Shown here piece after piece: positions 18,953 to 60,919 of a stretch of DNA of 61,389 nucleotides. Under the pieces are notes generated by a model. It saw nothing but the letters and a program-made list of their open reading frames with translations, was not told the DNA's origin and searched no databases. Both the position numbers and the translations under genes were made by a program. Position 1 is the stretch's first letter, and every line of letters starts with the position of its first letter. This DNA is from an uncultured Burkholderiales bacterium (lineage in GTDB: Bacteria > Vulcanimicrobiota > Xenobia > Xenobiales > QWHO01), in assembly GCA_964637145.1 (NCBI GenBank), contig CAZWUN010000002.1, positions 1-61,389 on the forward strand, given 5' to 3'.

Positions 18953-20656
18953 TTACGGCCCGGCCGGAGCTGTGGCGCCATCCTCCCGCTTCTTGAGCGC
19001 CACGCCTCCGATGATCCAGTGGTCGCCGTCCTCGCCGAGGCTGGCCCCGCGGGGCGGCTCGTCCAGTCGGGCGGTCTCCAGGACCACCTCCACATCGAGG
19101 TCGTTGCCCTGGAGCAGCGGGACCAGGCGGTCGAGGCTCGCCTGGAAGTCGGGGGCGTCGGTCGCGTGCAGATGGCGCAGGAGAGCCAGGGCGCGCTCCG
19201 GTTCCAGTGCCGAGAGCGATTGGGTGACGTGCTCGGGTGCCAGGTCCTGTCCGTCCACCCAGGCACCGACCTCGCGCAGACCCGGGTCGGTGTCCCCAGC
19301 ACGCAGCGCCAGGCCGCGTACGACGGGGCTGTCCAGGCTGAAAGTCTTCCAGGAGCTCAGCGCCACCTCGGCCGAGTCGGTCTTCAGGCGGGCCAGGAAG
19401 AACGCGCGGGCGTCATCGGGTCGCTCGGCTTGCAGGACCGCGCCGAGGATGGAATTGGCCCAGCCGGACTCGCCCAGGAGCGAGCGCGCCTCGCAAATCT
19501 CGACGAACGTCGCGATCGCCTCAGCCCGATTCTGCGCCGGCAGCGACCGATAAGCGTCCAGACCATACTGGGCGCCGGCCGCCTTCACGAGCTGCCTCAG
19601 CTCCGCCGCCTGCTCGGGACGGTCCGGGTCGAGCGCCGCGTGCAGCGAGTTGGCCCAGCCGGACTCCCCCACCTGTGAGCGCCAGCCGCAAATCTCCTCG
19701 AACAGCGCTTTGCTCTTGGCCCGCTTCTCGGGGTTCTGGGGAAGTCTCTTGTATGCGTCCAGTCCGTACTGGGCGCCGGCCGCCCGGACCAGGTCCTTCA
19801 GCTCGGCCACCTGGTCGGGCCGGTCCGGGTCGACCGCCTGGAGGAGGAGGTTGGCCCAGCCGGACTCCCCCACCAGCGAGCGCCAGCCGCAGATCTCCTG
19901 GAACAGGGCGGCGCTCCTGGCCCGCTTTTGGGAGTCTTTCGGCAGGCTCTTGAAGGCGTCCAGGCCATACTGGGCGCCCGCGGCCTGGACGAGGCCCTTG
20001 AGCTCGGCCACCTGTTCGGGCCGGTCCGGGTCGACCGCCTGAAGGAGGGGGTTGGCCCAGCCGGACTCCCCCACCAGCGAGCGCCAGCCGCAGATTTCCT
20101 GGAACAGGGCCGCGCTCCTGGCCCGCTTCTCGGGCTCTTTCGGCAGGCTCTTGAAGGCGTCCAGGCCGTGCTGGGCGCCCGCGGCCTGGACGAGGCCCTT
20201 GAGCTCGGCCACCTGGTCGGGCCGGTCCGGGTCGACCGCCTGGAGCAGGGGGGTGGCCCAGCCGGACTCCCCCACCAGCGAGCGCCAGCCGCAGATTTCC
20301 TGGAACAGGGCCGCGCTCCTGGCCCGCTTCTCGGGCTCTTTCGGCAGGCTCCAGAAAGCGTCCAGGCCGTACTGCGCGCCGGCCGCCTGCACCAGGCCTT
20401 TCAACTCGGCCACCTGCTCGGGCCGGGCCGGGTCGAGCGCCGCGTGCAGCGCGTTGGCCCACCCCGACGCGCCCGCGAGCGAGCGCCAGCTGCAGATTTC
20501 CAGGAAGAGGTTGACGCTGGCGGCTCGGCGCGACGGATCGTGCGGCAGGCGCCGGAAGATCTCCTCGCCGTACTGCTGATTCGAGGCTGTCACCAATTGG
20601 CTCAGCTCCCCATTCTGGGGCGACACCGAGGAGCTGGCGATCGGACGCACAAACAT
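18953..20656 (-). CDS. hypothetical repeat protein (67-aa tandem repeats) with IIGGVALKKR C-terminal tail
   Basis: The ATG at 20656 (MFVRPIASS) leaves a 110-nt gap to the upstream TPR gene. It has 5 full and 2 partial copies of the unit ESGWAN.LLQAVDPDRP.QVAELK.LV.AAGAQYGLDAFKSLP....KRA.SAALFQEICGWRSLVG. I recognise no family. Confidence 0.75.
   Translation of the reverse strand: MFVRPIASSSVSPQNGELSQLVTASNQQYGEEIFRRLPHDPSRRAASVNLFLEICSWRSLAGASGWANALHAALDPARPEQVAELKGLVQAAGAQYGLDAFWSLPKEPEKRARSAALFQEICGWRSLVGESGWATPLLQAVDPDRPDQVAELKGLVQAAGAQHGLDAFKSLPKEPEKRARSAALFQEICGWRSLVGESGWANPLLQAVDPDRPEQVAELKGLVQAAGAQYGLDAFKSLPKDSQKRARSAALFQEICGWRSLVGESGWANLLLQAVDPDRPDQVAELKDLVRAAGAQYGLDAYKRLPQNPEKRAKSKALFEEICGWRSQVGESGWANSLHAALDPDRPEQAAELRQLVKAAGAQYGLDAYRSLPAQNRAEAIATFVEICEARSLLGESGWANSILGAVLQAERPDDARAFFLARLKTDSAEVALSSWKTFSLDSPVVRGLALRAGDTDPGLREVGAWVDGQDLAPEHVTQSLSALEPERALALLRHLHATDAPDFQASLDRLVPLLQGNDLDVEVVLETARLDEPPRGASLGEDGDHWIIGGVALKKREDGATAPAGP
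19455..20654 (-). repeat. in-frame tandem repeat, 201-bp period (one 195-bp unit)
   Basis: The unit marker TTGGCCCAGCCGGACTC recurs at 19455, 19650, 19851, 20052, 20253 and 20454. The three central units are near-identical at nucleotide level. Confidence 0.85.
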
Positions 20657-20765
20657 GCAGCTTGAACCTAGCGGGTCGGGGTGAAAAGTCTCTGAACGTG
20701 CGTCGAGATCGTGGGGCTGCTGGGGCCCAACGGCGCCCGCTTGCAAGGAGGGCCGGAAACATGGC

Positions 20766-22238
20766 TCAGGCCATGTCGAGCAGCTCTTGCAGGCTCTCGG
20801 CCTCATCAGGGGTAGCCCGGCCGCTCTTGAGGTAGGCCCGGCAGGTCTGGCGGGCCTCTTTCAAGCGGTTCTGCTCGATCTGGGTGCGGATCCGGCCTTC
20901 CACCGCCGGGAAGAAGGCCGACTGCAGCTCCAGGGCGCGGTTGTAGGCCTGCTCTGCCTCGGACGGGCGGTCGAGCTGCAGGCAGCACTCGCCCCTGTTG
21001 CACCAGGCCAGCAGGCTGTCGGGCGCCTCTTCACAGGCCCGCTCGAAGCTGATCAGGGCCTGCTCGAGCTCTCCCGCCCGGGCCAGCAGGGTTCCCCGGT
21101 TGAGCCAGGCCAGCATGGTGGTCGGACTTGCTTTGACGGCTCTGTCCAGGAGCGCCTGAGCCTCGTCCTCCTCTCCCAGGCGCATCAAGCATGAGCCCAG
21201 CGCGGCCAGGGCCACGCCGTCCCTGGGGTGCTCTGACATCGCTTGCCGATAAAGGGGAAGGGCCTGCTCGGGCGATTCTCCTTCCAGGAAGAAAGCTCGG
21301 GCCAGAGCGCGGGCCAGCAGCTCGGGAGCCCTGGCCAGGGCGCGGTACAGGCCCTGGCTGGTCAACACCCGAGAATCGCACGGAGCCAGCTCTACAGCCC
21401 GGTCGAGGCACTTGAGGGCCTCGTCCAGCTGCCCTCTGCGAGCCAGAGACCCGGCCTGGCCCAGCCAGCAGCGAGGGTTCTCAGGCGCGAGAGCCAGGGC
21501 TTTCTCCAGGCTGCGGGACGCGTCCTCGCTGCGATCCAAGAGTTCGAGGGCCCGCGCCTGCTCGAGCCAGTAGGGAGCGGCATCATCCAGCCGGGCCGCC
21601 CGGTCGAAGCGTTCCAGGGCTTCCTCGAGGTGGCCCAGGTCCAGCAGTCGGTTGCCCTGTTTGTGCCAGAACTCCGCCTGGATCTGGGGTTGGGTGATTC
21701 CCCTGGCCCGCAGGCCGGCCAGGTGCTCCGGCAGGCCTTCCAGGGAGAACCGGGTGGCCAATCCTCCCAACTCGGACCAGAGCCCCTGCAGTTGCCCCAG
21801 TGCGACCGCTTCTTGCAGCGCCCCCTCCGAATCGCCTCCAGATAGCTCCAGCGCCCGGGTAGCCGCCTGCCAGCCTTCCTCGAACCGGCCCTGCTCCTTG
21901 AGGATTCGGGCCTTCTCGGCCCACCCCTCGGGCTCTTGCGGGGCCAACCGGAGGGCTTGCTCGATGGCCTGGGCGGCCTGTTCCAGGGAGAGTTGTTGGC
22001 GGTGGGCCGCGGCCAGAGCGCACCAGGTATCGGCGCGCTCGGGATGGAACTCTCGGGCGCGCTCGAGCGACTCGAGCGCTTCGGCCGCCATGCCGCACGC
22101 GAGCAGGATCTGGGCCCGAGCCAGCAGCACCTCCACGTTCCCGGGCGACTTCTTGAGAGCTCGCTCAAGCACGTTCATGGCGCCATCCGGGTCGCCGCGC
22201 TCGAACTTGCCCATGGCCTGTTGGACGGGATCTTTCAT
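20766..22238 (-). CDS. tetratricopeptide-repeat protein
   Basis: 490 aa of repeated 34-aa A/L/E-rich TPR-like units (e.g. W..LA.....G....A...YRQAL...P). Confidence 0.8.
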   Translation of the reverse strand: MKDPVQQAMGKFERGDPDGAMNVLERALKKSPGNVEVLLARAQILLACGMAAEALESLERAREFHPERADTWCALAAAHRQQLSLEQAAQAIEQALRLAPQEPEGWAEKARILKEQGRFEEGWQAATRALELSGGDSEGALQEAVALGQLQGLWSELGGLATRFSLEGLPEHLAGLRARGITQPQIQAEFWHKQGNRLLDLGHLEEALERFDRAARLDDAAPYWLEQARALELLDRSEDASRSLEKALALAPENPRCWLGQAGSLARRGQLDEALKCLDRAVELAPCDSRVLTSQGLYRALARAPELLARALARAFFLEGESPEQALPLYRQAMSEHPRDGVALAALGSCLMRLGEEDEAQALLDRAVKASPTTMLAWLNRGTLLARAGELEQALISFERACEEAPDSLLAWCNRGECCLQLDRPSEAEQAYNRALELQSAFFPAVEGRIRTQIEQNRLKEARQTCRAYLKSGRATPDEAESLQELLDMA

Positions 22239-25704: not shown

Positions 25705-28209
25705 ATGCACATTCTCGCTCAGAGCGCGGCCCGCACCCTGAGCTGGTTCGGGCCTCAGCGAGCCAGCTCGGTTGAGAGTCCCGACAGCGTGGTGCTGGGA
25801 GAAGAGCGCGCCACCGAGCCCAGGACCCTGGCCCCGGCCTGGGTGGCCGAGACGCCTCCCGTCCCGGCGCCGGCCCCCGAAGGCCGGGTTGCCATGGCTT
25901 TCCTGACCGGGCTTCGCCGCCAACTCATCGAGGGGAGCGCCACCCTGGACAAGCCCATGCAGGCGGAGCTGGCCAGGCAGGCCCACGGCCAGGGGCATCC
26001 CCTGGCTGCCCGCCTGGCCCGAGTGCTGCTCGACGACCACGCCCACTACGATTCCGCCCTGGAGATGTGGGTGGCCGAAGCGGGCGATCCGGTGGCCTAC
26101 CTCGAGGGACTGCACGAGAGGATGAGTGAAGACCGAGCCCGGCCTGAGGGGGCCTTCCCTCTCCACCTCGACGTCTGGGATCAGTTTCTCGATCACCTGA
26201 AGGAACGGCCCATGACGCCCACCGCTCTGCGCACTCTGGTGCACCTGTGGACCGGGCTCGAGGACCGCGCTCGGCTCCAGTTCGACAGCGATACGCGGGC
26301 CCAGGAGCCGGCCGAGGCCGACCTCAAAATGGCCGCGCGCTGCCGCGCCCAGGTGGAGGCCTGGGTGGGAAGCGGTCAGGCCCGGGTGGTGGGGGGCACC
26401 CTGGACCAGGTCAAGCTGGGCGCAGCTATCTCCGACAACCGGATCGAAGTCCATCCCAGCCCGCTGGATATCGCCCGCCTGGATCCGGCCGACCCCGATC
26501 CCACGGCTCGTCTGATCGCCGAGGGTCGCCTCGGACGCGACGGCGGCGCTCTGGCCTCGGCCCTGGGCGAGCTCATCAAGCAGCATCCCCGGCTCGAGGA
26601 GGGCGGTTATGTGAGCCGCAACCTGATCCCGCTGCTCCTTGCCGACCATGTCGGACCCAGCTACGCGGCCCGGTCGGCCCTGAGCAACCTGTTCGAGCGG
26701 CGCGCCGATCTGATGAGCCCGGTGCTGCAAACTCTCTGCCTGCAGCACCGCGGCGTTTATCTGCCCGAGCCGTTGGAGAAGACGGTCCAGTATGCCGGTC
26801 TCAAGCTCGGCTGGCGCCCCGATACCCCCGAGCAGGTTGCCTGGCTGGCCGGCAAGCTTTTCCAGTCGCGGGGCGGGCAGGAGGGCGACCACTTGATGCG
26901 CAGCTCCAGTGAGTTCACCCTGGCCGTTCAGCTTCTGAAGGATTGTCCCGCAGAGCTGCTGGCCACTCTCCCCCTTCCAACCAGCTTGCCCGAGGCTGCT
27001 CTCGACCATCTGCTCGAGGTCGGCAACGACGACCGGCTGCTCGACCTTTGGAACGGGGAGTTTGACCACGCCTGGCTGGTGGGCGAGCGGGGAGAATCGC
27101 TCCTGGCCGGGTTGGAGACGGCCTACCGGCAGGCCGGCAGCCTGGAGGATCTGCCCCCGCGCGCCCGGGCCACTCTGGCCATCTTGCACCAGGATCCGAC
27201 CAACCGGCCGCGGCTCTACGCCCTGCTCGAAGGAGACCTGGAGAGGCAGCCTGAGCACCGGGCCACCCGCCGGATGGTGGATGCGGCCCGCCTGCACGCC
27301 CTGGAGCAGGGACCCCAGCGACTGGGCCAGCTCTCCGGCTCCGAGCGTGGCCGCGAGCTCGAGCGCCTGTTGCGGATCAACTCCTTGCTGGGCGAGGAGG
27401 TGCCCGGATCGGGTCTGATGGAGCCTTACGAGAACCAGCTGGCCTCGGAGCGCTCGGCCCCCCTCCTGGCGGCCCTCGATCCGGCCGAGCGAAGCGCCCT
27501 GGGCGGGCCTGCCCTGGCTCGCTTCGAAGAGAGCTACCGCCAGGCCGGCTCGCTGGAGGAGCTGGGTCCCGAGGCCCGGGCCTCGCTCAGCCTGCTCGCT
27601 AACCTCTGGACGGAGCAGCCACAGCTCTCCCAGAAGCTGCTGAGCCTGCTCCGACCCGAGCTGGAAAGCGGCGCTGCCGGCGTGCCAGACGAGCTGGAAG
27701 CTCTCATCGATGGCTACGTGGCCGAAGAGACCGCTCGCGCGGTAGGCGGCTTTGCCGGCCAGGATCTGCCCGAGCGAGTGGCCAGCTACCAGACCGGCCT
27801 GAAGCTCGCCCGGGCCTCCTCCGATCGAAGAGACCTCGAGCGGACCCTCCGGGATGGGTTCTGTGCCCAGGCGGCGGCCCACCCGGTGCTCTCGAAGCTG
27901 GTCGATCCCGACGAGCTGGATGCCTCGCTGGAGGTGCTTCACGAGCTGATCCAGGACCCGGACGGCTGGGCCAGCGGGGCAGAGCGCTACCTGGAGCTGA
28001 CCGGCAAGCTCCCCGAGGACGGCATGGGGGTTTACCAGCAAGCCCGCGAGCTGCGCGGCCAGGGGATGCCCTGGGAGGCGGCCCGGGAGCTGGCTCTGCG
28101 GCGCCACCTGAAGGTGCCCGACCGCTCGCCTGGCGCGGCCGTCGAGCTTTCCCCGGGCAAGGTCACGGTGGGGGGCGTGGTGGTTCGCGAGCGTCGGCGC
28201 AACAGCTGA
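25705..28209 (+). CDS. large hypothetical protein (834 aa) with VTVGGVVVRERRR C-terminal tail
   Basis: GC3 bias and an acidic, helical composition favour the plus frame over the 849-aa antisense ORF. An internal duplication is visible (YRQAGSLEDLPPRARA / YRQAGSLEELGPEARA). I recognise no domain. Confidence 0.75.
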   Translation: MHILAQSAARTLSWFGPQRASSVESPDSVVLGEERATEPRTLAPAWVAETPPVPAPAPEGRVAMAFLTGLRRQLIEGSATLDKPMQAELARQAHGQGHPLAARLARVLLDDHAHYDSALEMWVAEAGDPVAYLEGLHERMSEDRARPEGAFPLHLDVWDQFLDHLKERPMTPTALRTLVHLWTGLEDRARLQFDSDTRAQEPAEADLKMAARCRAQVEAWVGSGQARVVGGTLDQVKLGAAISDNRIEVHPSPLDIARLDPADPDPTARLIAEGRLGRDGGALASALGELIKQHPRLEEGGYVSRNLIPLLLADHVGPSYAARSALSNLFERRADLMSPVLQTLCLQHRGVYLPEPLEKTVQYAGLKLGWRPDTPEQVAWLAGKLFQSRGGQEGDHLMRSSSEFTLAVQLLKDCPAELLATLPLPTSLPEAALDHLLEVGNDDRLLDLWNGEFDHAWLVGERGESLLAGLETAYRQAGSLEDLPPRARATLAILHQDPTNRPRLYALLEGDLERQPEHRATRRMVDAARLHALEQGPQRLGQLSGSERGRELERLLRINSLLGEEVPGSGLMEPYENQLASERSAPLLAALDPAERSALGGPALARFEESYRQAGSLEELGPEARASLSLLANLWTEQPQLSQKLLSLLRPELESGAAGVPDELEALIDGYVAEETARAVGGFAGQDLPERVASYQTGLKLARASSDRRDLERTLRDGFCAQAAAHPVLSKLVDPDELDASLEVLHELIQDPDGWASGAERYLELTGKLPEDGMGVYQQARELRGQGMPWEAARELALRRHLKVPDRSPGAAVELSPGKVTVGGVVVRERRRNS

Positions 28210-28225: not shown

Positions 28226-29458
28226 ATGATCGACGAGTTGGAACGCCGCCTGGTTGCCTACTGCAGCCTCGACACCCCCAGCGATCCGGACACCCCGGAT
28301 GAGCAGATCCCGAGCAGCGACTGCCAGTGGGCCCTGCTCCGACTGCTGCAGACCGAGCTCGAGCAGATGGGCGCTCGCGAGGTGGAGCTGACTGAGCGCG
28401 GCTACCTGATGGCCACCGTGCCGGGCAACCGGCAGGGTCCTGTCATCGCCCTGTGCGCCCACGTGGACACCAGCTCTCAGTTCCGGGCCGTGGGGGTGAA
28501 ACCCCGGGTTCACCGACGCTGGGACGGCACTCCCATCGAGCTGGGAGAACACGTGCTGCGGGCCGAGGATTCCCCCTACCTGAGCTCGCGCCAGGGCCAC
28601 GACCTGGTTACGGCCAGCGGCGATTCCTTGCTCGGGGCGGACGACAAGGCGGGTATCGCTATCGCCATGACCACCGCCGGCCACCTGCTCGCGCACCCGG
28701 AGATCGCGCGAGGGGACGTGCGCCTGTGCTTTTCGCCCGACGAGGAGATCGGGCGGGGGGCCGGCCAGCTTCCCCTGGACAAGCTCAGGGCGGACGCGGC
28801 CTACACGCTGGATGCCTGCGAGGTGGGCGAGCTCTGCTACGAGACCTTTTCGGCCGACAGGGCGGTGATCACGATCACCGGCGTCTCGATTCATCCAGGC
28901 TTTGCCAAAGACAAGCTGGTCAACGCCCTGCACACGGCCGCCGACATCCTCAATGCCCTGCCGCGCGAGCTCACTCCCGAGGGGACCGAGGGGCGCCAGG
29001 GCTTCCTGCACGCCACCAGCCTGCAGGGCACCGCTCACCAGGCCACGCTGAGCTTCATCCTGCGCGACTTCGAGCTGGAGGGGCTGGAGGCTCATCGCGA
29101 GCTGTTGCGTCGGGCCTGTCGCGAGGTTCCTACCCGCTGTCAGGTCGAGCTCGAGTTCAAGGAGCAGTATCGCAACATGCGCTATCGCCTCGAGCAGGAC
29201 ATGCGGCCCGTGGAACTGGCCGCCGAAGCCTATCGGCGCTGTGGGATCGAGCCCCGCTTCGTGGCCTTTCGGGGGGGCACGGACGGGTCCATCCTGACCG
29301 CCAGAGGGCTGCCCACGCCCAACCTGTTCTGCGGCATGCAGAACTTCCACGGACCGCTGGAGTGGGTCAGCTTGCAGGACATGGCCCGGGGAGTCGAGGT
29401 CTGCCTGGAGCTGGTCCGATCGTGGGGCGAGCCTCAGGCCTCGACCAGCGGGCCGTAA
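28226..29458 (+). CDS. pepT: peptidase T (tripeptide aminopeptidase, M20B)
   Basis: GGAGG lies 5 nt before the ATG at 28226. MIDELERRLVAYCSLDTPS matches the PepT N-terminus pattern. Also AHVDTS, DDKAG and FRGGTDGS. Confidence 0.92.
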   Translation: MIDELERRLVAYCSLDTPSDPDTPDEQIPSSDCQWALLRLLQTELEQMGAREVELTERGYLMATVPGNRQGPVIALCAHVDTSSQFRAVGVKPRVHRRWDGTPIELGEHVLRAEDSPYLSSRQGHDLVTASGDSLLGADDKAGIAIAMTTAGHLLAHPEIARGDVRLCFSPDEEIGRGAGQLPLDKLRADAAYTLDACEVGELCYETFSADRAVITITGVSIHPGFAKDKLVNALHTAADILNALPRELTPEGTEGRQGFLHATSLQGTAHQATLSFILRDFELEGLEAHRELLRRACREVPTRCQVELEFKEQYRNMRYRLEQDMRPVELAAEAYRRCGIEPRFVAFRGGTDGSILTARGLPTPNLFCGMQNFHGPLEWVSLQDMARGVEVCLELVRSWGEPQASTSGP

Positions 29459-30300
29459 GCGTCCGGACGGCGATCACGGAAGAACTGCCAGGTGCGGCGC
29501 ACTTCCTCGATCATGTCCAGATCGAGCGTGGCCACCACCAGCTCGTCCTGATCCTCGCTGCCGCAGGCGATGATCTGCCCGCGCGGATTCACGAAATAGG
29601 AGCTGCCATAGAACTTGCCGATGTTCCAGGGGGCCTCGGTACCGACCCGGTTGATGGCCCCCACGAAATATCCGTTGGCCACCGCGTGGGCGGGTTGCTC
29701 GAGCTTCCACAGATGCTGCGAGAGCCCGGCCACGGTGGCGGAGGGGTTGTAGACGATCTCCGCCCCCGCCAGGCCGAGCGCCCGAGCGCCTTCGGGGAAG
29801 TGACGATCGTAGCAGATGTAGACGCCGATGGTCGCGTAGCGGGTCTTGAAGACCGGGTAGCCGAGGTTGCCCGGGCGAAAGAAGTACTTCTCCCAGAACC
29901 CGCTGGTCTGAGGGATGTGCGTCTTGCGATACTTCCCGAGATACGAGCCGTCCGCGTCGATGACGGCGGCGGTGTTGTAGTAGACGCCGGCCTGCTCGCG
30001 CTCGTAGACGGGGACGATCATCACCATGTCATACTGGCGCGCGATGGGCGCGAGTCGCTCGACGGTGGGCCCCGGGACAGGCTCGGCGGCGTCATACCAG
30101 CGCTTGTCCTGCCCCGGGCAGAAGTAGGGGCCGTTGAAGATCTCCTGCAGACACAGGATCTGAACGCCCTGCTTGCCGGCGTCGTGAATCATCGGCAGGT
30201 GCTTGTCGAGCATGGCCGCCTGAACTTCGGCGACCGGACGAGTCTCGTCGTTGATCGGGTTGGAGGCCTGGATGAGGCCGGAAAGGACCGTGCGCGCCAT
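29434..30300 (-). CDS. carbon-nitrogen hydrolase (nitrilase superfamily; beta-ureidopropionase / N-carbamoyl amidase-like)
   Basis: ATG at 30300 inside the 680-aa ORF 29434..31476. The E-K-C triad context is LQEIF, YRKTHIP, ICYDRHFPE. Confidence 0.88.
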   Translation of the reverse strand: MARTVLSGLIQASNPINDETRPVAEVQAAMLDKHLPMIHDAGKQGVQILCLQEIFNGPYFCPGQDKRWYDAAEPVPGPTVERLAPIARQYDMVMIVPVYEREQAGVYYNTAAVIDADGSYLGKYRKTHIPQTSGFWEKYFFRPGNLGYPVFKTRYATIGVYICYDRHFPEGARALGLAGAEIVYNPSATVAGLSQHLWKLEQPAHAVANGYFVGAINRVGTEAPWNIGKFYGSSYFVNPRGQIIACGSEDQDELVVATLDLDMIEEVRRTWQFFRDRRPDAYGPLVEA

Positions 30301-30804: not shown

Positions 30805-31365
30805 GTGCATCTCATGCCTCTGAGCGCCTCGAGCGCGCCACCAGAGCCCACCAGCCGGGAGCGTTTGAACAGCACCATCACGCATTTTCAGGCGCTGGTG
30901 GACCAGTGGGAGCCCGAGATCAAGACCGACCTGGAGAACTGCGAGAAATGGCGTTCGTCCGCCCTGAAGAATGATAAGCTGGCTGGTTGGGGCCTGAAGG
31001 GAGCCGTGGCCGGGGGCGTCCTGGCCATGGTCGGGGCGGGCGTATCGCTGGCCATGGGTCTCGGGACCCACGGCGTCTTTCCGGGGCTGGGGGTCTTCCT
31101 GGTGGGGATCACCGTCTGCCAGGTCGCCTGCATGCGCCGGGACAGCGCTCAGATGGAATATCAGATGACCTTTCCCAGCGTGAAGCACCGTCAGGAGCTG
31201 TTGAAGACTCGGGCCTATCCGCAGCTTGAGCAGGCCCGCGCGGCCCTGCTCAAGCAGGATACCGAGGAAATGACCGCCCTGGCGGATGGGCTCCGCCAGG
31301 TCGGCAACATCATGGAGACCAAAGACTCCCTGGTGGTGGGGGGAACCCTGATTCGCAAGCGCTGA
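30805..31365 (+). CDS. TM-hairpin hypothetical protein with DSLVVGGTLIRKR C-terminal tail
   Basis: AGGAGAGGAG lies upstream. The start is GTG 30805 or ATG 30814. A Gly/Ala-rich double hydrophobic segment sits mid-protein. Confidence 0.65.
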   Translation: MHLMPLSASSAPPEPTSRERLNSTITHFQALVDQWEPEIKTDLENCEKWRSSALKNDKLAGWGLKGAVAGGVLAMVGAGVSLAMGLGTHGVFPGLGVFLVGITVCQVACMRRDSAQMEYQMTFPSVKHRQELLKTRAYPQLEQARAALLKQDTEEMTALADGLRQVGNIMETKDSLVVGGTLIRKR

Positions 31366-31393
31366 AGTCAGGTGCAAGAGGGGGCAGACCACC

Positions 31394-32185
31394 TCACGGG
31401 TGGGGGCTTTGAGACACGGGCATCGCGCCTTCCCAGCGCCGGGGCACCACCACTCCACCCACGATGAGCGAATCACCTCGAGTTTCCAGGCTCGTTGATT
31501 CAGGCCCGTCCGTCAGCCTGGCCACTTCGCTCAGCTCCTGGATTGTCTGGCCCAGAGCCTCCCGGGCGGCTGGCTCCAGGAGGGGCTGGTGGAGCAGGTC
31601 CGCGATCAGTTCGTCGACCGTCTGGCCGGGCAGGCTCTGGAACCGCCGCTGCAGGGCGCCGATCTGGCGGGCCGTCTCCAGCGAGCCCTCGGCCACCAGG
31701 CGGGCTTCCCGAGCACACAGGCCCTCGAGCAGCGTCTCGCGACCGAGGACTGGTCGCTGAGGGAGGGCGCCTGCGGCGGACTGGCCACGCTCGATAGCCT
31801 GGATCAATCTCTGGCAGCCCTCGCGCTCACTTCCCTGTCGGTGCCAGCGGACCAGCAGCACGGCCGAGGTCGCCGCCCCCACGGCCCCCACCAGGGTGAG
31901 CGGCCAGAAGCCATAGCCCAGGCCGCAGCCGGCCACACCCAGGCCGAGAAGTCCGGTCCACAGGGGCAGAGTCTGATGATCAGGGCTTCGCTCCGGGATG
32001 GCCTCCATGCGCTCGGCAGCTGCGCAGTGCATAGAGTAGAGATCTTCGCCAGGCGCCTGGCTGAGGGTCAACCGGTCGGTCTCAGCCTGGCGGGCGCCCT
32101 CCAGGTCACCTTGCACGACCAGGGCTGTGCGGCGAGCCTGCAGGGCCTCGCAAACGGTCTGGCGGGAGGGGGAATGAATGTTCAT
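31394..32185 (-). CDS. TM-hairpin hypothetical protein with DSLIVGGVVVPRR C-terminal tail
   Basis: 263-aa ORF with a Gly-rich double hydrophobic segment (LWTGLLGLGVAGCGLGYGFWPLTLVGAVGAATSAVLLV). Convergent with 30805..31365. Confidence 0.65.
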   Translation of the reverse strand: MNIHSPSRQTVCEALQARRTALVVQGDLEGARQAETDRLTLSQAPGEDLYSMHCAAAERMEAIPERSPDHQTLPLWTGLLGLGVAGCGLGYGFWPLTLVGAVGAATSAVLLVRWHRQGSEREGCQRLIQAIERGQSAAGALPQRPVLGRETLLEGLCAREARLVAEGSLETARQIGALQRRFQSLPGQTVDELIADLLHQPLLEPAAREALGQTIQELSEVARLTDGPESTSLETRGDSLIVGGVVVPRRWEGAMPVSQSPHP

Positions 32186-47372: not shown

Positions 47373-47525
47373 TCAGGCTCTGGTTTTGAGGGCCACGCCC
47401 CCGACCAGGAGCTTCTGGGCGACGGTCGCAATGGCGCCCCCCAGCGGCCCGTTCACCAGCCTGGCGACCTGGTTGCTGGCGGCCTGGTGGCCGTCAGCAA
47501 CCAGGTCGCTCAGCGGCACGGCTAC
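47373..47525 (-). other. 50-codon in-frame extension downstream of TAG, ending LLVGGVALKTRA
   Basis: Hand translation gives VAVPLSDLVADGHQAASNQVARLVNGPLGGAIATVAQKLLVGGVALKTRA*. 44 of 50 codons end in G or C. It is in frame with 47526..47927. Confidence 0.55.
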
Positions 47526-59899: not shown

Positions 59900-60919
59900 T
59901 TGGAGGACATGCAGGTCCACGTCCTCAGCCGGGACGCGGTGATGAAGACGGTCTACGAACGGGCCGACCGACTCAAGAGCTCCGAGCTTTCCGACCCGGG
60001 CAGCGCCGCTGCTCGGGATGTCGTGCTGCGCGAGGCCTATCGGATGGAGCAGATTCCCGGGGCCGACACGACCGCCATGCACGGCGAGCTCGCCAGGCTG
60101 CGTCAAGAATCTCGCTCCGACGGCCGGAAGGCTATCCTCGTGGGGGCCGGCCTGGCGGCCGCCGGAGTGGCAGTGGGTCTGGCCCTGGGGCCCAGCCTGC
60201 CCATGGCCGGCACCATCGCTCCCATCGTGGGGGTGGGCTCAGCCGCAACGGCCTTTCTGATTGGCTATGGCGGCTTCCATAACGATCGCTTCTATCAAGA
60301 GACCGGCGAGATGCTCGATCGCTGGACGCGCGTGGCTACGGCCCCTCCGCTGGCCCCGGGGGAGTGGCTCAAGACCCTGCCGGCGGCCACACCCAACGCG
60401 CCCGCCACGCGCCAGGAGGTGCTCGAGCTGATGCAGGCCTCCCGCGGCTACCTGGCCGCCAACCTCGATCAGCCCGGCCATGCCGCCGCCCTGACCGAGG
60501 TGGAGCGCGACCTGGCCGGTCTCTCGGCTCGCCCCGAGGAGAAGCTGAGCGATGTGCGCGCCAACCTGGGCGCCGAGCAAGCGGCGCTGCGTAAGCAGAT
60601 GTTCAAGGTGGGCTGCGGGGCCGTCGGGGGAATGATCCTCGGGCTGGTCGGCCTGCCCTTCCTGGGCGCTACCGGCATCGCCCTCGGCTTCGGCGGCTCG
60701 GCCGCCCTGACCACGGTGGGGCAACTGATGCTGCGGCGCGAGAAGAAGATCCTGACCCTGGATCGGCACCTGGCGGGGTGGGAAAGGCAGCTCGAGAACC
60801 TCAAAGCGATCTCCTCGGAGGTCCACCAACTGGCCAATCCTGGCCAGACCGTCGGGGTACAGCGCCAGGCCGGCTACCTGGTGGTGGGCGGGGTACGCGT
60901 GCCGGTGGCGGCGGGGTGA
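59900..60919 (+). CDS. hypothetical membrane protein with two TM hairpins and [15 protein letters not shown]-terminal tail
   Basis: 339-aa ORF. The start is uncertain (TTG 59900, ATG 59909 or ATG 59942). It has two Gly/Ala-rich double hydrophobic segments. Confidence 0.65.

Follow-up and report, generated by a model that had tools for sequence, protein, structure and literature searches.

Genes A and B, which face each other in the window (the whole 61,389-nt stretch of DNA analyzed herein), belong together with gene C to a very large one-genus family whose sole defining feature is a module of approximately 45 residues at the C-terminus, hereafter called the tail. More than 100 otherwise unrelated proteins of the genus have the tail, most likely as a previously undescribed address label that directs them to export or to a target. 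We propose that it is a C-terminal signal, specific to this lineage, through which an effector-like repertoire is exported or targeted and that the hairpin proteins are the membrane-inserting members of this repertoire; we assign this reading a rough probability of 0.4. The results obtained correct the preliminary description of this DNA on two points: the convergent genes do not form a unit, and the tail is not specific to hairpin proteins.

Genes A, B, and C

Gene A (30814..31365, + strand) encodes a protein of 183 aa that was predicted by a Kyte-Doolittle scan to be a hairpin membrane protein. Its reading frame is open from a GTG at 30805 (30805..31365, +; 186 aa); orthologues start at the equivalent of the ATG at 30814, hence the length of 183 aa. 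The scan detected a Gly/Ala-rich double hydrophobic segment at 30994..31137 (+; ORF residues 64-111), which consists of the adjacent segments 64-88 and 89-111 and is followed by CMRRD. The tail module at 31228..31362 (+), a predicted helix plus beta-meander, has the C-end ...TEEMTALADGLRQVGNIMETKDSLVVGGTLIRKR. The tail profile matched 31276-31362 with 25.5 bits, and the C-terminal tail reads ...METKDSLVVGGTLIRKR up to the stop codon. Orthologues of A were found in all four sister genomes, with nucleotide identities of 86-87% in G001-G003 and 65% in G004. The dN/dS ratio was 0.11-0.17, and A is under purifying selection. Its sole paralogue within the genome is C209.

Gene B (31394..32185, - strand) encodes 263 aa and was also predicted by the Kyte-Doolittle scan to be a hairpin membrane protein. 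Its Gly/Ala-rich double hydrophobic segment at 31844..31969 (-; residues 73-114) comprises residues 73-93 and 95-114 and is followed by RWHRQ. An AF2 model placed the hairpin between two helical bundles, with helices at 73-84 and 94-138 at low confidence in the hairpin region. The tail module is at 31436..31573 (-; C-end ...IQELSEVARLTDGPESTSLETRGDSLIVGGVVVPRR), the tail profile matched 31436-31522 with 32.7 bits, and the tail, which reads ...LETRGDSLIVGGVVVPRRWEG..., was modeled with strands at residues 233-236, 239-242, and 245-248. It is followed by an extension of 13 codons, WEGAMPVSQSPHP (31397..31435, -), which arose by stop loss: the window has TGG where homologues read TGA. All three B homologues (83-87% identity) lack these 13 residues and end in ...VGGVVVPRR before the stop codon. 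B is likewise under purifying selection (dN/dS 0.18-0.20). Its paralogues are C10 and C217, and a search for related loci with B as the query gave no match.

Gene C (59909..60919, +) encodes approximately 336 aa with two predicted hairpin modules and a tail. Its frame is open from a TTG at 59900 (59900..60919, +), and the ATG at 59909 is the likely start. The tail profile matched 60833-60907, and the relatives detected by BLAST are C100, C219, C321, and C367. Pfam, NCBIfam, and PDB sequence searches with A, B, and C returned nothing meaningful.

The three ORFs are present as the preliminary description had claimed, each with Gly/Ala-rich hydrophobic hairpins and a ...L(I/V)VGG... tail. The layout that it gave was recovered, in the form of a helical bundle, a Gly/Ala-rich hairpin, a basic cluster, a second helical bundle, and the tail, as were the two hairpins of C, for which the Kyte-Doolittle scan detected double hydrophobic regions at residues 76-124 and 234-277. 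Homology among the three beyond the tail was borne out only in part. Outside their tails, B and C proved homologous in an hhalign comparison (probability of 90%, E = 1.4e-6). In contrast, profile comparisons of the tail-less proteins revealed no similarity between A and B (4%) and a marginal one between A and C (53%). A, B, and C represent three different hairpin subgroups, with B related to C.

Convergent arrangement of A and B

A and B were said to face each other with 28 nt between their stop codons, and the coordinates agree (31366..31393). This short distance and the similar layouts of A and B are what a dedicated two-gene unit would show, for instance the two subunits of a heterodimer or two genes whose 3' ends overlap and mediate regulation, in which the convergent layout itself is functional. 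However, the pairing is not conserved: it was absent from all sister genomes and from the contigs of B homologues. No B adjoins the A orthologue in G001, G003, or G004, the A orthologue in G002 has a different tail-bearing hairpin gene beside it in tandem rather than in convergent orientation, and B homologues are placed upstream of unrelated large genes. Moreover, the spacer is short because B gained its stop-loss extension, without which it would measure 67 nt. Neither a terminator-like site nor a stable structure was found in these 28 nt (RNA fold z = 0.47, nothing unusual), and, as described above, A and B have no profile similarity once their tails are removed. We consider a two-gene unit to be highly improbable and conclude that the convergent arrangement is a local accident.

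Sequence and predicted structure of the tail

The tail has the consensus g(V/I)xvExxxxx(V/L)x(V/I)GGVR(V/L)xx(R/K). Its predicted architecture is an amphipathic helix, a Pro/Gly-rich linker, and a three-strand beta-meander in the order g(V/I)xvE, turn, (V/L)x(V/I)GG, and VR(V/L)xx(R/K). In an AF2 model of a 102-sequence alignment, the helix spans positions 3-23 and the strands 31-34, 37-40, and 43-46, and the GG is predicted to form the turn that joins strands 2 and 3. All five models agreed and the mean pLDDT was 77, with a strand confidence of only 64 to 72. Downstream of the GG, there are only V-R-V-x-x-R/K and 0 to 15 polar residues and no transmembrane helix. No Pfam or NCBIfam model and no PDB sequence matched the tail, and a Foldseek search of the PDB with the tail model yielded nothing significant.

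A tail profile of 30 columns was applied to 59,809 ORFs of the genome with a cut-off of at least 15 bits. It detected 105 domains, 99 of which ended within 15 residues of a stop codon, and this occurrence is far beyond chance. Conservation acts at the protein level: each conserved residue was found with all of its synonymous codons. GC3 is the same as the genome average. A DNA repeat or mobile element as the source of the tail was ruled out because all synonymous codons occur at conserved positions.

The number of residues trailing the tail varies from 0 to 25, and a few copies are internal; therefore, a binding module fits these data as well as a signal does. The tail may be a docking module whose beta-strands bind a common hub inside the producer. 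It would tie many proteins to a single scaffold or compartment, among them hairpin proteins that reside in the producer's own inner or intracytoplasmic membrane, with no export. We regard this as possible but doubtful. The tolerance of trailing residues and of rare internal positions suits it, and one strand face is entirely hydrophobic (V-x-V-G-G-V-x-V), as in strand-complementation tags. However, binding would not need the strict C-terminal position observed in 94% of cases.

Distribution and carriers of the tail

The tail forms the C-end of approximately 100 ORFs in this genome, which is 66% complete, and sister genomes have 78 to 128 matches each. It was absent from 16 genomes of the neighboring family (f2) and from 187 of the 201 genomes in a sample of the phylum; g3 is likewise tail-less, whereas the relatives G040 and G109 have ~10 copies. 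Among 1.84 billion representative proteins, only 53 clusters matched, and the match was C-terminal in every case. Thus, the near-identical tails that had been described for A and B are real in A, B, and C; however, they are not peculiar to the A/B pair. Further copies in the window were identified with the tail profile in a repeat protein gene (18953..20806, -; C-end ...DGDHWIIGGVALKKRED...), in a gene for a soluble protein of 834 aa that matched no NCBIfam family (25705..28209, +; C-end ...PGKVTVGGVVVRERRRNS), and in a stranded remnant of 50 codons that still encodes the tail (47373..47525, -; ...QKLLVGGVALKTRA).

With tails removed, the carriers fell into at least 54 mutually unrelated BLAST groups. 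Giant helical-repeat proteins are among them, as are PQQ/BamB-like beta-propellers; small proteins that have one or two Gly-rich hairpins are a minority, and one carrier is possibly CHAT-like (a weak, sub-threshold match). No Pfam domain was detected in 16 of the 18 carriers of the genome that were tested. The tail does not set hairpin proteins apart: hairpins occur in only approximately one quarter of the carriers, and approximately three quarters of the roughly 100 have no hydrophobic segment. Compared with the segments of ordinary polytopic membrane proteins of the same genome, those of the hairpins have a lower hydrophobicity (mean KD19 of 1.80 vs 1.99) and a much higher Gly content (21% vs 9%).

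Sec- or TM-like N-termini, called with our own heuristic for a hydrophobic h-region rather than with SignalP, were present in 1 of 90 carriers versus 149 of 840 other genes (18%; p = 1.5e-6). An N-terminal signature, M-x-I/V-x-P/S/T with no acidic residue, was detected in 21 of 83 carriers and in 105 of 3439 other genes (p = 3e-13). The paucity of Sec signals is also in line with docking inside the producer, as is a hairpin topology that would leave the soluble domains and the tail in the cytoplasm; in contrast, the carriers resemble a fast-evolving orphan repertoire and not the parts of one machine.

Cytoplasmic synthesis of the carriers would also suit a C-terminal degron or quality-control tag, through which an AAA+ protease or adaptor holds the repertoire at low levels, and the motif is short, C-terminal, and basic-ended. 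However, the degrons known to date are much shorter and do not form folded helix-plus-meander modules of approximately 45 residues, no specific adaptor was seen, and there is no reason for more than 100 unrelated proteins of one genus to have a degron in common. We judge this explanation to be improbable.

Search for partner machinery

We searched the genus for a machine that may read the tail, and no partner was found. VirB4 of T4SS (PF03135) was not matched in G001, G003, or G004, TssC/VipB of T6SS (PF05943) was not matched in the genus, and a multi-domain EssC/EccC ATPase of T7SS was not found in G001, G003, or G004, in which the FtsK genes are single-domain only. A single full-length FHIPEP gene is present in G001 and likewise in G003, in both cases within a flagellar-type cluster (FlgBC, FliFGIJKMP, FlhBA), and neither genome gave a match to flagellin. 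This flagellar-type export cluster is also found in tail-less relatives, and no tail gene is located near it. Secretins were present in the screen of G001 and G003 and were not assignable to a system.

The surroundings of 90 tail genes (272 neighbor genes) contained no recurrent chaperone, ABC, transporter, or other neighbor family. Around single-copy tail genes of related genera (g8, G040), the neighbors were limited to TPR giants, pentose-phosphate genes, and a DUF4388-like gene, indicating that there is no machine at these loci. The absence of a secretion machine linked to the tail agrees with the docking module; however, a candidate hub was not found near tail genes either. Export through a double-glycine leader and C39 (PCAT) was rejected: the tail motif is C-terminal and of beta type, and the C39-like proteins of the genus are all small and stand alone, and their presence does not track the tail.

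The encapsulin shell (PF04454, Linocin_M18) was matched in G001 and had no match in G000, G002, G003, and G004; it is also encoded by one tail-less relative. Encapsulin targeting peptides of the LTVGSLRR type are similar to the tail core h-x-h-G-G-h-basic, with a short C-terminal run of hydrophobic-x-hydrophobic-Gly-(Gly/Ser)-hydrophobic-basic residues, and this likeness raises the idea of a cargo-loading peptide. Alternatively, the tail may be an extracytoplasmic sortase-type signal of the PEP-CTERM, GlyGly-CTERM, or MYXO-CTERM kind, in which the pattern is similarly many-to-one (PMC3237569). However, the Linocin_M18 shell was detected in just one of the five genomes of the genus and also in a relative without tails; it does not co-vary with the tail, which does not fit cargo loading. 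Most of the genomes with more than 100 tails yielded no shell gene, and the carriers include membrane proteins and proteins of 1,600 aa. Regarding the sortase-type signal, the tail has no transmembrane helix, and its carriers have no Sec signal, which such signals need. Both versions are very improbable and largely refuted.

Comparison with known systems

PEP-CTERM/exosortase, GlyGly-CTERM/rhombosortase, MYXO-CTERM, and LPXTG/sortase resemble the tail in that a short motif at the extreme C-terminus is borne by dozens to hundreds of unrelated proteins. Strongly lineage-specific expansion and basic residues at the end are also common to both. In contrast, the motif of sortase-type signals is accompanied by a transmembrane helix and a basic cluster, and the signals are borne by Sec-exported proteins and handled by a dedicated membrane enzyme, whereas the tail has no TM helix, a Sec signal in 1 of 90 carriers, and no partner enzyme that was found.

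HlyA-type T1SS signals and the Arg-rich tails of VirB/D4 T4SS substrates share with the tail a C-terminal position, the absence of an N-terminal signal peptide, positive charge, an amphipathic helix that leads into a short terminal element, and large repeat-protein substrates. As in T1SS substrates, the carriers have no N-terminal signal, and the candidate signal is in the last ~50 residues. However, T1SS and T4SS signals are poorly conserved in sequence, whereas the tail is a sharp motif. VirB4 was not detected in the genus, neither ABC or MFP genes nor any other transporter family recurred among the 272 neighbor genes, although a dedicated transporter may be encoded at a distance, and no RTX domain was detected in the 18 carriers scanned.

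The hairpin members had been compared with chlamydial Inc proteins and translocators. Inc proteins and translocators insert as helical hairpins with their soluble parts on one side. The bilobed hydrophobic domain by which Inc proteins are recognized, two segments of ~20 aa with a short loop, was detected in A, B, and C by the Kyte-Doolittle scan. Similar to Inc proteins and T3SS translocators, such as SseD, the hairpin members have a bilobed, Gly-rich, marginally hydrophobic double segment between helical domains and belong to a lineage-specific expanded repertoire without Sec signals. An effector-like analogy agrees with the data in these respects; however, family membership was not supported. 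The Inc model NF052432 (TC0500_fam_Inc) gave 14 bits with A against a cut-off of 240 and no match with B or C, and the translocator model NF052420 (translocon_SseD) gave 16 bits against a cut-off of 130. Furthermore, the only export core detected was of flagellar type, the organism belongs to another phylum, and Inc proteins have no common C-terminal motif. ClyA-family alpha-pore-forming toxins (YaxA, AhlC, XaxA, and MakA), in which a helical bundle has a hydrophobic hairpin head, took the top Foldseek ranks for the B model against the PDB. None of these matches was significant (E of at least 0.64, TM below 0.3), and we regard the likeness as generic only.

Proposed role of the tail

We prefer a label for export or targeting because the carriers are without Sec signals, C-terminal placement is required, and the repertoire is a fast-diversifying set of orphans. 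The tail would most likely act as a one-step export or targeting signal, with one common partner reading it as an address label. The marginal hydrophobicity of the hairpin members may keep them out of the producer's own membrane. They would then enter a target membrane, or a specialized membrane of the producer, in the form of helical hairpins, with the tail and both soluble bundles on one membrane side.

A more specific and tentative version, which we consider unlikely as it stands, is that the tail is the substrate signal of an undescribed protein-delivery route, either the flagellin-less flagellar-type export apparatus of this genus or a wholly unknown system. Such a route would serve more than 100 orphan substrates per genome, including Inc-like membrane inserters, in a lineage that is uncultured and may be predatory or host-associated, and the separate N-terminal signature M-x-I-x-P...RP would form a second part of the code.

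Even if the tail serves docking only, a 45-residue motif on 54 unrelated groups in one genus represents an unusually rapid modular spread. If, on the other hand, the tail does label proteins for export or targeting, it identifies in a single step all of the secretome or effector repertoire of a large-genome lineage that is uncultured. The labeled repertoire would comprise more than 100 proteins, approximately 2-3% of the genes, nearly all of them without a known domain. The tail peptide or its profile is a handle for fishing out the machinery that reads the tail. The hairpin members would then be the first Inc- or translocator-like proteins beyond the usual host-associated phyla.

Results

The three hairpin-plus-tail genes of the window, designated A, B and C, occupy 30805..31365 (plus strand, 186 aa), 31394..32185 (minus strand, 263 aa) and 59900..60919 (plus strand, 339 aa), respectively. 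These positions, the tail sequences quoted for the genes and the 28 nt (31366..31393) between the A and B stops agree with the preliminary description. The same applies to the paired hydrophobic segments. In a Kyte-Doolittle scan, adjacent Gly/Ala-rich hydrophobic segments were located at residues 64-88 and 89-111 of A and at 73-93 and 95-114 of B, each pair being followed by a basic cluster, while C has two Gly/Ala-rich double hydrophobic regions. The most likely start codons are the ATG at 30814 for A, which is conserved in orthologues, and the ATG at 59909 for C, based on a comparison with paralogues. Purifying selection acts on both A (dN/dS 0.11-0.17) and B (0.18-0.20). A and B are real genes.

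The convergent arrangement of A and B is absent from all four sister genomes of the genus. In a DNA search of these genomes, A orthologues showed 86-87% identity in G001-G003 and 65% in G004, and B adjoined A in none of the four. In G002, a different hairpin-plus-tail gene takes the place of B downstream of the A orthologue and on the same strand (755-1507 and 1508-2362, respectively, minus strand of locus L019 on contig C43). It encodes 250 aa and ends in ...ERGGRLVVGGVVLGRRG. This replacement suggests that family members turn over at a single site in the manner of cassettes. Only three homologues of B were found among 5.8 billion proteins (83-87% identity), and unrelated large co-directional genes lie 3' of them on their contigs. 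The homologues terminate in ...VGGVVVPRR followed by TGA; the corresponding codon in the window is TGG, and the frame reads on for 13 codons (31397-31435, minus strand). Since this change from TGA to TGG adds 13 codons, the short A-B spacer is partly due to the loss of the B stop codon. No terminator-like site or unusual fold was detected in the 28-nt spacer. The A-B pair is not a unit.

The window also carries a beta-ureidopropionase/nitrilase-like gene (29434-30300, minus strand), the product of which has its best named relatives in Kofleriaceae and 'Deltaproteobacteria' MAGs (86-90% identity). Such identities may stem from lateral transfer or simply from strong conservation of the enzyme. 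Since identity is 71-81% even in Bacteroidota, the enzyme is a poor lineage marker.

When every stop-to-stop ORF in the genome was scanned for the motif, 94 were found to end in h-x-(V/I)-GG-V-x-h-x(0-4)-(R/K), approximately 85 of which clearly form one family. A profile built from 85 tails detected 105 domains at a threshold of at least 15 bits in this 66% complete assembly, of which 99 end no more than 15 residues from the stop codon and three are internal. Six tail carriers are encoded in the window. In proteins matched by the HMM only, the second Gly is sometimes N, S or P. Four tail motifs are internal to long ORFs (contigs C309, 2281-2364; C124, 460-540; C370, 1520-1594; C10, 12777-14981), with C309 having one internal and one terminal copy; these may be fusions or stop losses similar to that of B. 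We excluded a repeated DNA element as the origin of the tail because conservation is at the protein level: every synonymous codon is in use at the conserved Gly, Val and Arg positions, and the carriers have the average GC3 of the genome.

Upstream of the strands, many tails start as an amphipathic helix of E-V-x-x-L-A type. The AF2 prediction from 102 tails comprises a helix (3-23) and strands at 31-34, 37-40 and 43-46, with GG forming the turn that joins strands 2 and 3. The mean pLDDT is 77 (64-72 in the strands), and five models agree. Nothing resembling the tail was found in Pfam, NCBIfam or PDB sequences, and a literature search returned no description of such a motif.

The sister genomes contain at least 106, 78, 112 and 128 tail matches. 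Between one and three copies occur in two further genera (g8 and g9), and approximately ten in two genomes of another family of the same class. No matches were obtained in 16 genomes of the neighbouring family f2 or in the small-genome genera of family f3, and the tail is absent from 187 of the 201 genomes sampled across the phylum. This sample comprises few families, one of which dominates, as would fit a small phylum. Among 1.84 billion representative proteins, a 50-column tail profile gave only 53 matches at E <= 1e-3, all at the C-terminus; those inspected were orthologues or fragments of the same proteins. We concluded with high confidence that the tail is a genus-restricted C-terminal module of approximately 45 residues on more than 100 unrelated proteins, with A, B and C among those that bear hairpins.

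After removal of their tails, 102 carriers fell into 54 BLAST groups. The two largest have 19 members each. One consists of large helical-repeat proteins, and the other of proteins of roughly 250-540 aa, both scanned members of which match PQQ_2/BamB-type beta-propellers. The smaller groups include one of five proteins to which C belongs, one of three with B as a member and a pair of which A is one, followed by approximately 44 singletons. No Pfam domain was identified in 16 of the 18 genome carriers scanned, and P0030, a carrier retrieved in the search of representative proteins, matched CHAT only weakly (21.2 bits; cut-off, 24 bits). Hydrophobic segments are present in approximately one quarter of the carriers, mostly proteins of 180-340 aa.

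A lack of homology among A, B and C beyond the tail would count against the preliminary description. Profile-profile comparisons without tails supported such homology for B and C (90% probability, E = 1.4e-6, alignment from residue 1 through the hairpin), but not for A and B (4%); thus, these two share no detectable homology beyond the tail. A and C scored 53%, and C and a pair of carriers from contigs C63 and C358 scored 91%.

The AF2 model of B (pLDDT 71, pTM 0.62; only one of five models was good) places a low-confidence hairpin between two confident helical bundles (8-62 and 149-225), with the strands after them. Foldseek yielded no significant match; the top, insignificant matches were alpha-pore-forming toxins. 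A helix-capping motif, (A/T)PG(E/D)(S/T)(L/V)xxM, precedes each hairpin and, in B-type proteins, is repeated in the second bundle. In B, both bundles contain it as PG(E/D)T(L/V)xxM. The motif occurs at residues 44-53 and 185-194 of B, at 51-60 of C and in paralogues on contigs C10, C217, C100, C219, C367 and C63, and marks a duplicated three-helix module.

Discussion

Machinery that might read the tail was sought in the genus without success. No VirB4, TssC or EssC-like genes were found, and encapsulin is present in only one of the five genomes. C39 peptidases were rejected because they do not track the tail. Moreover, the neighbourhoods of 90 tail genes revealed no recurrent partner, and the loci of single-copy tail relatives contained only TPR giants, a DUF4388-like gene or pentose-phosphate genes. 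One full-length FlhA/SctV gene is present in each of G001 and G003. In G003, a flagellar-type export/basal-body cluster on contig C27 (loci L015, 12349-20000, and L016, 1-17400) encodes FlgB, FlgC, FliF, FliG, FliI, FliJ, SLT, FliK, a rod protein, FliM, FliP, FlhB and FlhA; neither G001 nor G003 has a Flagellin_N match. This cluster is an intriguing candidate for the reader, but relatives that lack the tail are equally equipped and no tail gene lies inside it.

Several other genes were noted in these searches. Immediately 3' of flhA in G003, three genes of 81 aa each lie in tandem, together with a Gly/Pro-rich gene of 533 aa; all of them share a C-terminal ERWKI..ET...Q..TVNQA domain without a Pfam match. 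Between 6 and 17 stand-alone proteins per genome of the order match the FlhA/SctV profile solely over its cytoplasmic C-terminal half (positions approximately 325-656); examples are in G001, G003, G004, G007, G013 and the genome of the window (contigs C220, C111, C263, C30 and C352). The tail-less relative G007 has a 1400-aa EssC/EccC-like ORF with three FtsK/SpoIIIE domains (G007:C12:493882-496125), to which nothing corresponds in the window's genus.

By our own heuristic, Sec- or TM-like N-termini occur in 1 of 90 carriers versus 149 of 840 other genes (p = 1.5e-6). This depletion excludes sortase-type extracytoplasmic sorting, and leaves a cytoplasmic role or one-step export. The former is assumed by the main rival explanation, in which the tail is an intracellular docking module; we consider this less likely than our best reading. 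In the latter, the tail labels an effector-like repertoire for export or targeting, and we assign this reading a probability of roughly 40%.

Two further features of the carriers provide clues to the mechanism. The N-terminal signature M-x-(I/V)-x-(P/S/T), without Asp/Glu in the first ten residues, is found in 21 of 83 carriers versus 105 of 3439 other genes (25% versus 3%, p = 3e-13). Within the window, A, B and C begin with it at 30814, 32185 (minus strand) and 59909, respectively. It is often accompanied by ...R-P-x-x-A 10-20 residues in, and a longer form, M-Q-I-x-P...R-P, is also present on approximately 40 tail-less genes, such as MQIQPTSFATPLSAARP. According to empirical rules, the N-termini of Pseudomonas syringae type III effectors carry Pro or an aliphatic residue as the third or fourth residue, are Ser/Pro-rich and lack early acidic residues. 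The carrier signature resembles these rules, a likeness that may serve as a lead. Furthermore, compared with TM helices from polytopic proteins encoded on the same contigs, the hairpin segments are less hydrophobic (KD19 1.80 vs 1.99, p = 3e-5) and far richer in Gly (21% vs 9%). Low hydrophobicity and a high Gly content keep T3SS/T4SS membrane effectors out of the membrane of the producer. The analogy to Inc and translocator proteins drawn in the preliminary description is acceptable for the hairpin members in the sense of 'works like', but fails as a statement of family membership.

A predatory lifestyle has been proposed for related large-genome Eremiobacterota of a different family (PMC9259500). 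Such a lifestyle would fit an effector repertoire.
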